DNA of 64,000 bases from Escherichia phage WPEC3, in the sequence record PV611058. One strand, written 5' to 3'. Made by a program: the position numbers and the translations under genes. Below the pieces are notes generated by a model that had not been told where the DNA came from, did not search any database, and saw nothing but the letters and a program-made list of their open reading frames with translations. Shown here piece after piece: positions 50,898 to 61,712 of the stretch; within the stretch, counting starts at the first letter, position 1; each line of letters opens with the position of its first letter.

Positions 50898-51086
50898 GTC
50901 TTTATCCTCTTGAGTTGATGAAATGATTATAGCAAAAAGGGCTGACTAGTGTCAACCCTTTTGTTTTAGATAATTTGTACTTCATCATAGATCTTGCACG
51001 ATTTGCTTTCCTGGGTTATTTGTAAATTTATACCTAGTGGAATCAAGAATTATTTTAAATCTTCTTTCACATAGTACTCATATAAT

Positions 51087-51284
51087 TTAATTACTTTTGT
51101 ATATTGAATCACATTGTCTACGCAATAGTTTATAGTATGCTTTACCACGAGGAAATAGTTTACGTGTATGTTCTCCTTTTCCCCACGGTCCTAAATATGT
51201 TTTACGCGTGTCGTGATTATTAAAGTTATTTGATACAGTTGATTTTGTACCAATCGGATCTTCCTTACTAAAATAGATAGACAT
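51087..51284 (-). CDS. hypothetical basic protein (65 aa)
   Basis: ORF; purine-rich SD. Confidence 0.45.
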   Translation of the reverse strand: MSIYFSKEDPIGTKSTVSNNFNNHDTRKTYLGPWGKGEHTRKLFPRGKAYYKLLRRQCDSIYKSN

Positions 51285-51315
51285 TATAAAGTTCTCTCTT
51301 CACTAAGTTTTTGTA

Positions 51316-52866
51316 TTAAACTATTTCGGTAGCACCATACTTAAAGTAAATTTCCTTAATCATTTCAAGATTATGGATGCTTGTAGTTTCAGACCAACCA
51401 TCCTCCATCAATTCACGTTCAATAATACCTTTCGTATTATGGATTTTAATATTTTCAGTTTGAAACAGTTTCTTACATTCAGTTTCGGCAGCAATACAAT
51501 CAACTGAATTTTCAAATTTAAAAGAGCTAATACGTTTTATATCATAATAACATTTTAAGTTTTGTTCATATTCACGACGACCGAGGATTGTTTCAATTCC
51601 ATATTTTAGCCCAATATATTCACCTGCATTACATATACCACTAATATATGCAATTTTTTGATTGCGATGTGCCTTACGAGGATTGCCACATCCACGCAAA
51701 TGTATAGATGGTGTTTGCCAGAATTCATCACCACTTTCTGGATCAATAATACACACATTAGTACGGGCATCAATATACTCTACTTTACTGTAATCATATT
51801 GTTCATCGTGAATTTCGTTAGCCCTGTTGATAAATTCATCAATTGACATTTTATTTTTCAGGCCAGTTGATATATTAGCACGATCATTATTACCACATCC
51901 CATCAAATGTGATGATGGTGTTTGCCAGAATTCACCATATACTGGATCTATAATACATACCTTAGTACTGTTGTTTACGTATACGACCTTACTATAATCA
52001 TACAGATTATCATGCACCAAATTGGCCTTCTCGATAAATTCATCAAGTGTTAAGCGTTTACTCTGTGCCGTTTTTTCAAAACCACGGATTGGGTTTCCAT
52101 GACCTTTCCAATGGTAGATTGGTTCTTGCCAGAATTCACCATATACTGGATCTACAATACATACCTTAGTCCATGCACCAGTATACTCCACTTTACTGTA
52201 GTCATATAAATGACCATGTACTGCACGAGAACGTTCAATAAAAACTTCGTTGGTGAATGTTTTATTTACTGAAGTTCCTATACGCCCACGTTCCATGTTA
52301 CCATGCTTGGATTTTAAATGGTCATATGGCGTTTGCCAGAATTCACCATACACTGGATCAATAATGCATACTGGAGTTTTACTATTAACATATTCTACGT
52401 TTGAATAATCGAACGTATTTCCAAAACGTTCGATAGCTTCAGCTATAAATGTTTCAGTTGTTTTTGATTTAAGTTTTTTACCATTTTCAATGGCACGTTG
52501 TGGGCTACCTGCACCTTTTAAATGGGAGCTGGGTTCTTGCCAGAATTCACCATACACTGGATCAATAATACATACCTTAGTGCTATTATTTTTATAAACA
52601 ACTTTACTATAATCATAGAGGTTGTTATGAACTTTTTCTGCTCGTTCTATAAACGTTTGGGTGGTTAATTTGCCAACACCTGAACGATATGGATTCCCCT
52701 GACCGCGAATGTGATGTGACGGAGTTTGCCAGAATTCACCATACACCGGATCAATAATGCATACTGGTTCTTTAGCTTTTACATACACTGCTTTTTCGTA
52801 ATTATAGAGATCACCATGTACATTTCGTGCAGCAATTAAAAAAGTTTCTTGGTCGGTAACACGCAT
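51316..52866 (-). CDS. six-repeat protein (516 aa)
   Basis: six tandem ~85-aa repeats with conserved ..YDYS.V.Y.....VCIIDPVYGEFWQ.P..H..G.GNP.R; SD AGGGA. Confidence 0.7.
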   Translation of the reverse strand: MRVTDQETFLIAARNVHGDLYNYEKAVYVKAKEPVCIIDPVYGEFWQTPSHHIRGQGNPYRSGVGKLTTQTFIERAEKVHNNLYDYSKVVYKNNSTKVCIIDPVYGEFWQEPSSHLKGAGSPQRAIENGKKLKSKTTETFIAEAIERFGNTFDYSNVEYVNSKTPVCIIDPVYGEFWQTPYDHLKSKHGNMERGRIGTSVNKTFTNEVFIERSRAVHGHLYDYSKVEYTGAWTKVCIVDPVYGEFWQEPIYHWKGHGNPIRGFEKTAQSKRLTLDEFIEKANLVHDNLYDYSKVVYVNNSTKVCIIDPVYGEFWQTPSSHLMGCGNNDRANISTGLKNKMSIDEFINRANEIHDEQYDYSKVEYIDARTNVCIIDPESGDEFWQTPSIHLRGCGNPRKAHRNQKIAYISGICNAGEYIGLKYGIETILGRREYEQNLKCYYDIKRISSFKFENSVDCIAAETECKKLFQTENIKIHNTKGIIERELMEDGWSETTSIHNLEMIKEIYFKYGATEIV

Positions 52867-52928
52867 TTTCTTTATCCCTAGTACGTTTCATTTCGATAGA
52901 GCTATAATAGCAAAAGGGCTGACCGAAG

Positions 52929-53144
52929 TCAACTCTTTGATATGATAATATAATCATTCCATAAATTATATATATTGTTTTCAACACAATCATCATCGCT
53001 TAATTCTATAATTGACGAGATAAGTTCTGATAAGGTTTGTGTGTTCAAAACCGTATCACGATGTCTCAACCACCATTTCATGGTGAGTGTTCGGATTTTG
53101 TACGGATTGTTTGAAAACTTGTATCTAGAAGTGTCAAGTATCAT
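52929..53144 (-). CDS. hypothetical protein (71 aa)
   Basis: ORF downstream of denV; weak SD. Confidence 0.45.
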   Translation of the reverse strand: MILDTSRYKFSNNPYKIRTLTMKWWLRHRDTVLNTQTLSELISSIIELSDDDCVENNIYNLWNDYIIISKS

Positions 53145-53157
53145 TTTTAATCTCTAT

Positions 53158-53595
53158 TTACTTAATCATCTCGGTATAGTACTCAGGTAACTCAACATCA
53201 GTAAATTTATACCACTTAGGCTTCATTTGGAGCTTCTCAATCAAGCGTTCACGAGACATTTTAATCTCTGAATCAGATGGTACATAGTCCTGGCAAAACT
53301 CCGCAGGGAAGCCGCTAATGTCGTTTAATTCAATGTTTTGAATCTTCATACCACGACGCAAACATTCGTTAACAATTTCAATATGACGCTTCTGTAAGTA
53401 CAATAACTTGTTGTAGAAGAATGTTACATGACCTGAACCTAACAGGTAAGTACTGTTAATTTTGAAATCACGTACACGCTTACGTGCTTGAACATGTTTT
53501 TGTACAGCACCAAACACACGTGGGAGTTCACGATATTCAGCCATCAGATGTTGGTCAGCAAGTTCTTTAACGTGTACTAAGTTAATGCGTGTCAT
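53158..53595 (-). CDS. denV: endonuclease V, pyrimidine-dimer DNA glycosylase
   Basis: near-colinear match to T4 endonuclease V from memory ([42 protein letters not shown]); SD GAGAGGA. Confidence 0.93.
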
Positions 53596-53623
53596 GTATT
53601 CATCCTCTCGTTTCGATGAAATG

Positions 53624-53658
53624 ATTATAGCAAAAAGGGCTGACCGAAGTCAACCCTT
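53624..53658 (-). promoter_or_regulatory. hairpin-embedded promoter upstream of denV
   Basis: stem-loop AAGGGCTGAC-cgaa-GTCAACCCTT whose 3' arm supplies TTGAC(T); TATAAT 18 nt downstream. Confidence 0.55.
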
Positions 53659-60481: not shown

Positions 60482-60502
60482 ATTGTTTATTCTCTATGAC
60501 TA

Positions 60503-60510
60503 TATTTATA
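60503..60510 (-). promoter_or_regulatory. T4-type late promoter TATAAATA
   Basis: exact TATAAATA on the minus strand upstream of 58970-60481. Confidence 0.65.
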
Positions 60511-60562
60511 GTATAAAGAAAAGGTTGACCGAAGTCAACCCTATTTTCACTGTACTATACCA

Positions 60563-60859
60563 TTAGTAGTTACAGTCAGCTTTCGCTGTGAATGTTTTAC
60601 TTTCTCCGCGTTGTGTGGTGATTCGTCCGAGCAAAGTAGTTTTGTCAATAGTCATTGTAGTTAGTACTGGAACATTACCTTCAAAGTCAATAGCTTTGAA
60701 ATTGTAGGTGGTTTCATTCTCCACTACACTTGGACCAAAGAGTTCATATGTGTTGATTTCAAGTGTGTCACCATCTGAACGCAACAGTGTGCAGTCCAGA
60801 TTAGGAGTAGCCAGTACTGGGAAAGCCAAACACATCATCATTACAATAATTAATTTCAT
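60563..60859 (-). CDS. hypothetical secreted protein (98 aa)
   Basis: ORF; signal-peptide-like MKLIIVMMMCLAFPVLATP; SD AGGAG. Confidence 0.6.
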   Translation of the reverse strand: MKLIIVMMMCLAFPVLATPNLDCTLLRSDGDTLEINTYELFGPSVVENETTYNFKAIDFEGNVPVLTTMTIDKTTLLGRITTQRGESKTFTAKADCNY

Positions 60860-61119
60860 TTCACTTCTCCTGTTTTTTTCTTAGGATCAACCAATGACCA
60901 AATGAAGAATCCGAGAATTACAAGTACCCACAGAATCATGATAAAGAAAGCAAACAGTACAATAGTATTTGTCAAAAAGAAATACAATAGAATGTTCGAC
61001 CCAATACTACATACAATCAATGCAGCTTCATGTTTAACAACACGAATGGCAGTAATGAGTGCGGGAAGAAATCCGACAAATAACAGTACTAACGCATATA
61101 GTGATAATGTTTCAGCCAT
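60856..61119 (-). CDS. small membrane protein (87 aa)
   Basis: ORF; two hydrophobic segments; SD AAGGGA. Confidence 0.6.
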   Translation of the reverse strand: MAETLSLYALVLLFVGFLPALITAIRVVKHEAALIVCSIGSNILLYFFLTNTIVLFAFFIMILWVLVILGFFIWSLVDPKKKTGEVK

Positions 61120-61127
61120 GATATCCC

Positions 61128-61241
61128 TTATTTGGTTTGTTCAACACTAGGTGTATTGATATAGGTGTCAATTGAATAACATACTGTACCCACTACAACA
61201 GCAGCGATTAGGGCAGCGATGATGAATTTAGTACCTTGCAT
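61128..61241 (-). CDS. hypothetical small membrane peptide (about 37 aa)
   Basis: short ORF MQGTKFIIAALIAAVVVG...; SD GAGG; hairpin-embedded promoter upstream. Confidence 0.35.
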   Translation of the reverse strand: MQGTKFIIAALIAAVVVGTVCYSIDTYINTPSVEQTK

Positions 61242-61328
61242 AATTTAATACCTCACGTTGTTTGTATTTTGTATCACTTGATGAAAATATTATACGACAA
61301 AGGGCTGACTGAAGTCAACCCCTTTTAA

Positions 61329-61712
61329 TTATTTTTTAAACTTATGTTTTTCGCCTTCAATAGAGTTCACGATGTCATCATGAATCTTGCGAAGGTTATG
61401 AGTTTTCTTTAGTGCTTCATGTAGTGCACGGAATGCTGCGTGTACTGTTGCCTTGAAGTGCTCTTTAGGAGTCACTTTAAGTTTCTCAATGATATCACGT
61501 ACATAAATTGGATGATCTTCAAATACACGATTCAATTCATGACCTAGTGATTCTAGACTGAAAGCTTTTTCACGTGAAGGACGATCATGTGCAAGACTTT
61601 GGTCAGGCTTTAGTAGACCTAGTGAATCAAGATACTTATGCTTATGTGCATTATCAATTCCAGAAATATCCACATCATGCGATGGATCTTTCTTATTCCA
61701 TTTATCAACCAT
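61329..61712 (-). CDS. late protein (127 aa)
   Basis: T4-type late promoter TATAAATA at 61745-61752; SD AAGGAG; motif sharing with 58970-60481. Confidence 0.65.
   Translation of the reverse strand: MVDKWNKKDPSHDVDISGIDNAHKHKYLDSLGLLKPDQSLAHDRPSREKAFSLESLGHELNRVFEDHPIYVRDIIEKLKVTPKEHFKATVHAAFRALHEALKKTHNLRKIHDDIVNSIEGEKHKFKK

Follow-up and report, generated by a model that had tools for sequence, protein, structure and literature searches.

The 64,000-nucleotide (nt) stretch of Escherichia phage WPEC3 analysed here (sequence record PV611058; hereafter, the window) raises the question of whether one short intergenic element can both end the transcript of a gene and begin that of the next. The initial annotation had described a stem-loop module of about 45 nt that recurs upstream of seven open reading frames (ORFs) in a block at 50.9-61.3 kb, and had suggested that such an element could terminate the upstream transcript and start the following one. 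This suggestion is supported in silico, the sequence-level requirements of the two activities being largely present on the gene strand, and by precedent. Specifically, it is quite likely that the upstream transcript is ended, or at least attenuated, in the T-run of each module, that a new transcript begins about 13 nt further on, insulating the neighbouring genes from each other, and that two variants hand their gene over to the late transcription system.

Identity and location of the modules

The block that contains the modules is 98-99% identical to Escherichia phages fEgEco12, vB_Ec-M-J, Turkey3 and WPEC5, and 86-92% identical to 121Q, PBECO4 and G17 (Asteriusvirus, 348-386 kb); judging from these identities, the window is part of a 121Q-like jumbo coliphage (Asteriusvirus, with no family assigned). 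All the ORFs of the block lie on the minus strand, and most of its genes are small and annotated as hypothetical. The identifiable ones are denV (53158-53595; Pfam Pyr_excise, 2.5e-15), an HNH endonuclease gene, a gene for an endonuclease-like repeat protein of 516 amino acids (aa), and two PHROG 'virion structural protein' genes (58970-60481 and 61329-61712).

The modules were searched for with the pattern AAGGGYTGAC-N4-GTCAACCCTT, with at most three mismatches and with 100 dinucleotide-preserving shuffles as the control. The pattern matches the plus strand of the window at seven sites (50937-50960, 52914-52937, 53635-53658, 58257-58280, 58939-58962, 60520-60543, and 61300-61323) and has no match in the shuffles. 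All seven sites are intergenic, and each is directly upstream, on the minus strand, of one of the ORFs named in the initial annotation (50124-50897, 51316-52866, denV at 53158-53595, 57806-58219, 58647-58898, 58970-60481, and 61128-61241), so that the claim of seven modules is borne out. The same holds for the flanks described with them, as 5-10 A-rich nt lie directly upstream of the stem in all copies and a T-run follows each stem. Moreover, a looser search and a regular-expression scan revealed four variant copies (minus-strand positions 1478, 4233, 7499, and 12047), with the loop TCCG and the -10 element TATTAT, at 1.4-12.1 kb and thus outside the range originally reported. The family is therefore larger than first described (7 + 4 copies). 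No module was found by these two scans between 12.1 and 50.9 kb of the window and, as far as the window and parts of its relatives are concerned, both module-bearing regions, at 1.4-12.1 and 50.9-61.3 kb, are blocks of small 'hypothetical protein' genes.

Two trivial origins were considered and rejected. Sites of the form TTGAC-N4-GTYR split cleanly into chance palindromes of 4-5 pairs and modules, mostly of 8-14 pairs. A host origin was discarded since none of 5,426 complete E. coli genomes has a match covering at least 80% of the 48-nt module; the best E. coli match, found in 354 genomes, spans only 31 nt at 87% identity (E about 0.8). The modules and the leaders associated with some of them do not belong to a curated RNA family, no Rfam family reaching its gathering score anywhere in the window, and the window holds no tRNA or tmRNA genes. 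The copies are the following:

50926..50965, minus strand: module 50955, before 50124-50897 (PHROG 1250, AAA-like); hairpin 50935-50962, made of GGGTTGAC-ACTA-GTCAGCCC plus an A/T extension (-17.2 kcal/mol, z -5.6); -35 TTGACA at 50950-50955, predicted spacer of 18 nt, and TGcTATAAT with the -10 at 50926-50931, a 12/12 promoter match plus the TG.
52904..52942, minus strand: module 52932, before 51316-52866; the weakest hairpin, with its core at 52918-52933 and one mismatch in the outer stem (-11.9 kcal/mol, z -2.6); predicted -35 TTGACT at 52927-52932, spacer of 17 nt, -10 TATTAT at 52904-52909.
53624..53664, minus strand: module 53653, before denV (53158-53595); hairpin 53632-53661 (-23.4 kcal/mol, z -6.2); predicted -35 TTGACT at 53648-53653, spacer of 18 nt, TGcTATAAT with the -10 at 53624-53629.
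58246..58285, minus strand: module 58275, before 57806-58219; hairpin 58254-58283 with three G.U wobbles (3' arm GTTGGCCC); predicted -35 TTGACT at 58270-58275, spacer of 18 nt, -10 TATAAT at 58246-58251.
58928..58967, minus strand: module 58957, before 58647-58898; perfect palindrome AGGTTGAC-TTCG-GTCAACCT, hairpin 58938-58963, then a run of seven T (-15.6 kcal/mol); no good sigma-70 -10, and TGTAAATA at 58928-58935, which agrees with the T4-type late motif at 7 of 8 positions.
60503..60548, minus strand: module 60538, before the virion structural protein gene 58970-60481; hairpin 60521-60542 (-17.3 kcal/mol); predicted -35 TTGACT at 60533-60538, weak -10 TATACT at 60510-60515, overlapping an exact T4-type late motif, TATAAATA, at 60503-60510.
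61289..61328, minus strand: module 61318, before 61128-61241; hairpin 61299-61324 with the loop TTCA (-16.0 kcal/mol, z -5.5); predicted -35 TTGACT at 61313-61318, spacer of 18 nt, -10 TATAAT at 61289-61294; short T-run CCCTTTGTCG.
12019..12054, minus strand: variant module, GTGGTTGAC-TCCG-GTCAGCCAT, with a compensatory outer pair; -10 TATTAT; a conserved non-coding leader follows.
7471..7506, minus strand: variant module, GGGATTGAC-TCCG-GTCAGTCCC, with one extra base pair; -10 TATTAT; a conserved leader follows.
4205..4240, minus strand: variant module, with the anatomy of 7471-7506.
1450..1485, minus strand: variant module, with the anatomy of 7471-7506.

Anatomy of the module and promoter elements

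On the minus strand, the module is composed, in order, of an A-run, the hairpin GGGTTGAC-(UUCG)-GUCAGCCC, a T-run, TGnTATAAT, about 20-40 nt, a Shine-Dalgarno sequence, and the ATG. In the typical copy 53653, it reads AGAAAAAA GGGTTGAC TTCG GTCAGCCC TTTTTGC TATAAT CATTTCA...GAGG...ATG, and the TGc that precedes the -10 makes it an extended -10. On the transcribed strand, the -35 hexamer TTGACT consists of the 5' arm plus the first loop base, and the original assignment of the -35 to the 3' arm is correct in plus-strand coordinates only; the 3' arm and the terminator T-run constitute, instead, the promoter spacer of 17-18 nt. Transcription is predicted to start about 7 nt past the -10, which leaves the hairpin outside the predicted new transcript, and in the seven reported modules the ATG lies 20-41 nt beyond this start, with the Shine-Dalgarno sequence in between.

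The initial annotation had placed a TATAAT 17-18 nt from the -35. This is strictly so at four of the seven sites, where TTGAC(T/A) is followed at that distance by TATAAT (50955, 53653, 58275, and 61318), and loosely so at six, with TATTAT at 52932 and TATACT at 60538, whereas 58957 has no good sigma-70 -10. A sigma-70-like pair with one of these three -10 hexamers is likewise present in all four variants. In a consensus promoter scan, the window copies stand at the top, with 11-12 of 12 positions for 50955, 61318, 58275, and 53653 and 10 of 12 for 60538 and 52932. Furthermore, a set of 98 distinct modules was gathered from the window and from phages related to it; in 92 of them the spacer is of 17 or 18 nt, in 65 the -10 is TATAAT or TATTAT, and in 76 TGn precedes it.

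These regularities bear on the possibility that the modules are terminators only, their resemblance to TTGAC/TATAAT being a by-product of the AT-rich tail and the downstream genes being expressed by read-through or from other promoters. The GenBank record of G17 annotates the same hairpins solely as terminators (ARNold predictions on the gene strand), and promoter-like hexamer pairs in this AT-rich region occur at chance level overall, 77 versus 73.7 expected. Nonetheless, we consider this explanation highly improbable, as it accounts neither for the fixed distance of the -10 from TTGAC and the frequent TGn among the collected modules, nor for the scores of the window copies at the top of the scan, nor for the regular distance to the Shine-Dalgarno sequence and ATG. 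TTGAC is also invariant in the collected modules while the outer stem and the loop vary, even though a terminator needs no such 5' arm, and homologous elements of phages RB49/phi1, the promoter-early stem-loops (PeSLs), have given about 13,000 Miller units in a reporter.

The position of the modules relative to the preceding genes is equally regular. A distance of 0-6 nt separates the upstream stop codon from the stem in five modules, as against 20 and 124 nt in the other two. In two cases, namely the HNH gene 53650-54063 (stop at 53650-53652) and the 71-aa ORF 52929-53144 (stop at 52929-52931), the TGA stop is the TGA within the TTGAC -35 of the next module, and therefore translation ends within the 5' arm of the terminator hairpin.

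The hairpin as an RNA structure

For the 56-nt contexts of the modules, folding energies range from -11.9 to -23.4 kcal/mol (z from -2.6 to -6.2), and all copies have stems of 8-9 base pairs with 4-6 G-C pairs and 4-nt loops. In 11 of 11 copies, the hairpin of the gene-strand RNA is more stable than that of the opposite strand, by 1-8 kcal/mol (-10.7 versus -3.1 kcal/mol in module 58275 and, as further examples, -13.4 versus -6.4 and -14.3 versus -9.1 kcal/mol), because G.U pairs turn into A.C mismatches on the opposite strand. As the partner of the first T of TTGAC, 87 of the 98 distinct modules have a G and 11 an A; the T.G wobble would preserve RNA pairing and yet abolish the TTGAC of the opposite strand.

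When 87 distinct cores, taken from the window and from related phages, are aligned without gaps, 94.9% of the cells are paired. The outer pair 8-27 is never unpaired (GC in 64 cores, AU in 14, GU in 7, and UA in 2, that is, 16 double changes), the one-sided changes in the inner stem are all G.U wobbles, and the covariation score exceeds those of all 500 shuffles and of all slid controls; since the first six pairs were required by the collection filter, only the outer pairs are unbiased in this respect. The loops are of the UNCG type in 9 of the 11 window copies (TTCG in five and TCCG in four), to which the loop composition refers because the wider sample was seeded with a TTCG-containing pattern and its loop statistics are biased. 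Taken together, this evidence speaks more for a hairpin of the gene-strand RNA than for a palindrome of the DNA: wobbles and compensatory changes maintain the pairing on the gene strand only, which points to an RNA structure and not just a palindromic -35.

The same data speak to a different model, in which the inverted repeat TTGAC-N4-GTCA is bound by a dimeric regulator, of phage or host origin, that turns early promoters off, the RNA hairpin being irrelevant. The overlap of the repeat with the -35, a classic operator position, fits this model, and a section of a preprint on bacterial terminators (Fletcher et al., bioRxiv 10.64898/2026.08.19.745784) reports, to judge by its heading, that the palindromes behind terminator stems can double as sites for transcription factors. 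The way in which the repeat departs from symmetry does not fit the model, as it is mostly imperfect in a manner tolerated by RNA (the prevalent T.G pair, the three G.U wobbles of 58275), its outer-stem pairs covary, most window copies carry UNCG loops, which are a feature of RNA stability, and the stem is always followed by a T-run. An operator in place of the hairpin is thus very unlikely, although protein binding may coexist with it as an additional layer.

Proposed dual function

A promoter-coupled terminator would work as follows. RNA polymerase arriving from the upstream gene would transcribe GGGUUGAC-UUCG-GUCAGCCC and UUUUU, an intrinsic terminator, and would be released within the spacer of the promoter. 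The same DNA would act as a strong host-type promoter, with the A-run as an UP-like element, the -35 TTGACT, the 17-18-nt spacer, and TGnTATAAT, and the new transcript would begin about 13 nt downstream of the release point, without the hairpin. The outcome would be a series of separately driven units of 0.3-4.6 kb. We infer termination and initiation themselves from the observed sequence anatomy, the strand-specific conservation of structure, and the conservation across relatives.

Several points weigh against such a complete function at every copy. On the terminator side, a rule-based scan accepted on the gene strand only 52932 and 60538 of the seven, and 58957 on the plus strand only; calls are few because the pairing of the A-run with the T-run consumes the latter as stem. 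Past the G/C core, the tails hold 4-6 T in 8 nt, and that of module 61318 is only CCCTTTG, so some copies may be attenuators and not full stops. Where the upstream stop codons lie next to the stem or inside it, a closely trailing ribosome could hinder the folding of the hairpin. On the promoter side, the 18-nt spacer is one above the optimum, and two of the seven modules, 58957 and 60538, lack a good sigma-70 -10. Lastly, a literature search found no transcript-end data for this phage or for any Asteriusvirus.

The two modules without a good -10 keep the hairpin and carry a late motif where the -10 would be, with late transcription as their probable task. Across the whole window, the T4-type late motif TATAAATA has only two copies, versus 13.8 expected from shuffles. 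Both (minus strand, 60503-60510 and 61745-61752) immediately precede a virion structural protein gene, namely 58970-60481 and 61329-61712, respectively; elsewhere in the window, the motif seems to be avoided. In module 58957, TGTAAATA occupies the position equivalent to that of the late motif of 60538. The designation of the whole region as a late-side block is hence justified in part, for 60538 and 58957 with their TATAAATA- or TGTAAATA-type motifs, while the other five modules look like early promoters of the host RNA polymerase in a block of small genes of unknown function. Judged by its motifs, the block is mainly early-type, with two late-type variants.

If the proposed function is correct, the modules provide exact coordinates for the predicted borders of transcription units in a block of genes of unknown function. 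Moreover, about 45 nt would pack an UP-like A-run, a -35, a hairpin, a U-tract, a spacer, and an extended -10 into a ready-made insulated expression part, and would offer a clean system for testing the coupling of termination and initiation, as mutations in the 3' arm alter the hairpin and leave the -35 intact.

Conservation in relatives and exchange of cassettes

Orthologous modules are conserved in G17, fEgEco12, Ecwhy_1, CMSTMSU, SHEFM2K, 121Q, and EC.P1. The slot between the module of denV and that of the 223-like gene (50124-50897) holds, across these seven relatives, 0-2 different cassettes, each with modules as its borders:

This window and CMSTMSU: orf71, a module, the 516-aa gene, and orf65.
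fEgEco12 and EC.P1: nothing.
Ecwhy_1: two other cassettes.
121Q: genes 218-222, including an endonuclease gene.
G17: four other ORFs.
SHEFM2K: a homing endonuclease cassette.

Several homology junctions fall inside modules. The homology to fEgEco12 and Ecwhy_1 ends at 50966-50992, the boundary between presence and absence of the HNH gene is at 53661-53670, and further boundaries in modules are at 60520-60547 and 61278. The module downstream of denV is complete in fEgEco12 and EC.P1 and is reduced to a half-module scar in G17, 121Q, and Ecwhy_1, where GGGTTGACTTCGGT runs into TACACA and other unrelated sequence, with the junction just past the loop. Similarly, EC.P1 has an extra gene after its equivalent of module 60538, with the junction right behind the 3' arm. 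Other junctions are away from modules, at 53179 (inside denV), 54060, and 57808.

From the junctions inside modules, a secondary role as crossover sites for cassette exchange appears plausible, with a chance that we put at even or slightly better. Gene cassettes would be swapped, deleted, or inserted by crossover at the modules, which are probable crossover points because about 45-60 nt of near-identical sequence recur in direct orientation. Such a role would offer a simple explanation for the whole-cassette differences found at the same intergenic sites of close jumbo phages. The statistics are less favourable to it: 4 of about 8 boundary junctions are at modules, and modules make up about 7 of 33 boundaries, which under an intergenic-only null gives a binomial estimate of P about 0.07 that is confounded by the endonuclease cassettes. 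Several of the swapped cassettes being endonuclease-like, homing could explain the mosaic without any special role of the modules; the mobility of homing endonucleases could drive the turnover, with modules merely as conserved flanks where recombination resolves.

Taken further, this argument would make the modules primarily mobility or recombination elements, marking where mobile cassettes end, for instance free-standing homing-endonuclease genes with expression signals of their own, and their recurrence would reflect spread and not selection for the control of transcription. The variable cassettes beside the modules are indeed endonuclease-like (HNH 53650-54063; 51316-52866, PHROG 681/559), relatives carry 'homing endonuclease' or 'endonuclease' genes in the same slot, junctions lie inside modules, and the same core is found in unrelated phage families. 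However, modules are also present at orthologous sites before conserved, non-mobile genes (denV, the 223-like gene, and the virion structural protein gene) in all relatives examined, they are always gene-oriented and at a working distance from the ATG, and neither terminal inverted repeats nor target duplications were found beyond the hairpin. As a primary explanation, mobility is hardly credible; as an accompaniment of the transcriptional role, it can coexist with it.

Some features of the neighbouring genes were recorded alongside. The 516-aa product of 51316-52866 (minus strand; PHROG 681/559, 'endonuclease / HNH endonuclease') has internal repeats of about 80 residues, and the slot of this gene holds different endonuclease-like genes in the relatives. 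The denV product has 145 aa in the window, with its C-terminal end replaced, and likewise in CMSTMSU, on the basis of DNA homology across 48001-53661, while in fEgEco12, 121Q, and G17 it has 171 aa. The denV homology to these three phages breaks at 53179, inside the gene, and the denV gene of SHEFM2K is also short (435 nt). Beyond the last module, two ordinary terminator-like hairpins without a TTGAC arm are located at 62878-62900 and 63461-63486 (minus strand); a segment at about 62853-63327 is replaced in 121Q, G17, and SHEFM2K, and the first hairpin borders this segment, with the second about 130 nt beyond it.

The leader repeat and other repeated elements

The four variant modules head a conserved non-coding repeat of about 200 nt (minus strand, 1300-1510, 4040-4265, 7320-7530, and 11870-12080), which is composed, in order, of the module, a leader with the 12-mer CCCAYAGGGTGC, and a second promoter, TTGCAT-N17-TATAAT. 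By blastn, the repeat has 664 matching places, distributed over 70 phage records that belong without exception to RaK2/121Q-like jumbo phages; the Escherichia and Salmonella genomes among the records listed mostly have 10-24 copies each, and some copies are in annotated terminal repeats. For the leader below the four variant modules, RNAalifold gives only a mini-stem of four pairs (three C-G and one G-U) without covariation.

The 12-mer CCCAYAGGGTGC is invariant, occurs on the minus strand at 1428, 4178, 7449, 9783, 11992, and 19309, and is also present in L014, L019, and L030. Its position is about 25-40 nt past the start predicted for some of the strong early-type promoters. In one place of the window (about 19190-19310), and also in related contigs, convergent promoters enclose two copies that face each other. 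Neither an Rfam match nor a covarying structure was found for the 12-mer.

A perfect promoter without a terminator hairpin, TTGACA-16-TATAAT, is at 55768-55825 (minus strand) and is followed by GGGGATGAACTTCTCATCCCC, which would fold into a hairpin at the extreme 5' end of the 55196-55750 mRNA and could be a 5' stabiliser. Lastly, a megablast search with positions 1-25000 of the window matched 223 phage records, including Campylobacter phages, Phapecoctavirus, and Justusliebigvirus; a short segment of this region is shared far beyond the jumbo-phage clade and is distinct from the repeat of module plus leader.

Wider distribution of the core

The exact 23-nt core pattern is found in 29 stretches of IMG/VR, mostly in contigs of 345-378 kb, with some of 118-162 kb and 235-247 kb, and it is followed in nearly every case by a -10 and an ATG. 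With the 48-nt module, blastn matches 312 phage records, including KVP40, nt-1, and their relatives, Aeromonas phage 65, Klebsiella phiKp_21, Brochothrix phage A9, and Enterobacter, Pectobacterium, and Cronobacter phages of about 150 kb. KVP40 and nt-1 match at seven places each, and the nt-1 match is the ORF109/ORF110 intergenic region, AAAAAGGGTTGACAGATGTCAGCCCTTTTTTGTATCAT, which has the core GGGTTGAC-N4-GTCAGCCC, a T-run, and a -10. The core thus spans Asteriusvirus and RaK2-like jumbo phages, KVP40-like and Aeromonas T4-like phages, enterobacterial myoviruses of about 150 kb, and Brochothrix phage A9, which has a Gram-positive host.

A more speculative and, in our estimate, rather unlikely interpretation of this distribution is that the core of 23-29 nt (A-run, GGGTTGAC-UUCG-GUCAGCCC, T-run, and -10) is the portable border of insulated cassettes that move with genes of unknown function between unrelated families of large virulent phages. 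The strongly preferred T.G wobble would then have been selected because it preserves the RNA hairpin and destroys an antisense -35, making the cassette strictly one-directional, and the terminating polymerase, its release site overlapping the promoter, might re-initiate locally.

Comparison with known systems

The closest counterparts of the modules are the PeSLs, which in phages RB49 and phi1 join a stem-loop to an early promoter of the sigma-70-like type with AT-rich DNA upstream, in five arrangements, one of them with the stem-loop overlapping the -35 (Arbiol et al. 2010, PMC2839356). In a lacZ reporter, one RB49 stem-loop terminated transcription about as well as rrnB T1, and one PeSL gave the approximately 13,000 Miller units mentioned above; neighbouring RB49 PeSLs recombine to yield mini-circles, with crossovers in or beside the loop (PMC2839356). 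PST/T4 and nt-1/KVP40 have PeSLs of their own, with the consensus A3-4 G3-loop-C3 T3-4 and middle-promoter variants (PmSLs) in nt-1 (PMC4122927), and the ORF109/ORF110 pair of nt-1 appears in an example of PeSL deletion (Fig. 6B legend; Comeau et al. 2014, PMC4122927).

The window modules share with PeSLs the AT-rich upstream sequence, the sigma-70-like -35 and -10, the terminator-type stem-loop, the Shine-Dalgarno sequence and ATG, and the location in short gaps among small genes of unknown function. The nt-1 consensus and the ORF109/ORF110 element AAAAAGGGTTGACAGATGTCAGCCCTTTTTTGTATCAT have the core of the window modules, T.G wobble included. Likewise, both kinds of element offer examples of insertions, deletions, or replacements between close relatives, of decayed 'half' elements, and of crossovers (apparent ones, in the present modules) within the loop or beside it, as well as variants with a promoter other than an early one, the PmSL in nt-1 and the late-type motifs here. 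Three differences stand against these likenesses. The host of the modules is an Asteriusvirus of about 350-380 kb, whereas all the PeSLs described so far, those of nt-1 included, are in Straboviridae, which reflects where they have been reported and is not demanded by the mechanism; the -35 is always the 5' arm here, in contrast to the five arrangements of RB49/phi1; and promoter activity, terminator activity, and mini-circles were measured for RB49/phi1, while for the window modules the two activities are predicted from sequence.

A second parallel comes from bacteria. According to a 2026 preprint, it is common in Acinetobacter and other bacteria for the terminator of one unit to overlap the promoter of the next in tandem, the -35 being in the DNA of the stem-loop and the T-tract upstream of the -10 (Fletcher et al., bioRxiv 10.64898/2026.08.19.745784). 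Such promoter-coupled terminators are reported to be active in both functions in vitro and in vivo; both activities respond to mutations of the sequence that they share, and termination is improved when the coupled promoter is active (bioRxiv 10.64898/2026.08.19.745784). The phage modules resemble them, as there described, in the coincidence of the -35 with stem-loop DNA, in the T-tract just upstream of the -10, in the location between tandem genes, and in the upstream A-tract; termination and initiation are about 10 bp apart in the bacterial elements versus a predicted distance of about 13 nt in the window modules. The bacterial elements, however, are chromosomal, have diverse stems, and were defined by Term-seq and Cappable-seq, through an RNA 3' end mapped no more than 35 bp upstream of a 5' end of the same strand, whereas here one near-identical family is repeated many times in a phage genome; no role in recombination was proposed for the bacterial elements.

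Within the clade, RpoD-like early promoters with an UP-like element were predicted for the Rak2-like jumbo phages CBB and GAP32 (Buttimer et al. 2017, PMC5259590). In agreement with the window, sigma-70-type promoters are concentrated where short hypothetical genes, regarded as early, are located, and an ATAAATA-type late motif precedes structural genes; in contrast, the text of that paper contains neither 'stem-loop' nor 'hairpin', and its terminators are listed apart from its promoters, with no overlap described (PMC5259590). The RaK2 paper mentions neither promoters nor terminators, the PA5oct paper gives them in separate lists, and our literature search found no paper on the overlap of terminators and promoters in the RaK2/121Q-like clade.

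Judged by their anatomy, the window modules have the sequence-level traits by which PeSLs are recognised, in a lineage outside Straboviridae. As far as sequence can define them, they are thus an already described kind of element, a PeSL or promoter-coupled terminator, and what is new is the host clade, which extends cassettes of the PeSL type from T4-like phages to the 121Q/RaK2-like jumbo phages of 350-380 kb.

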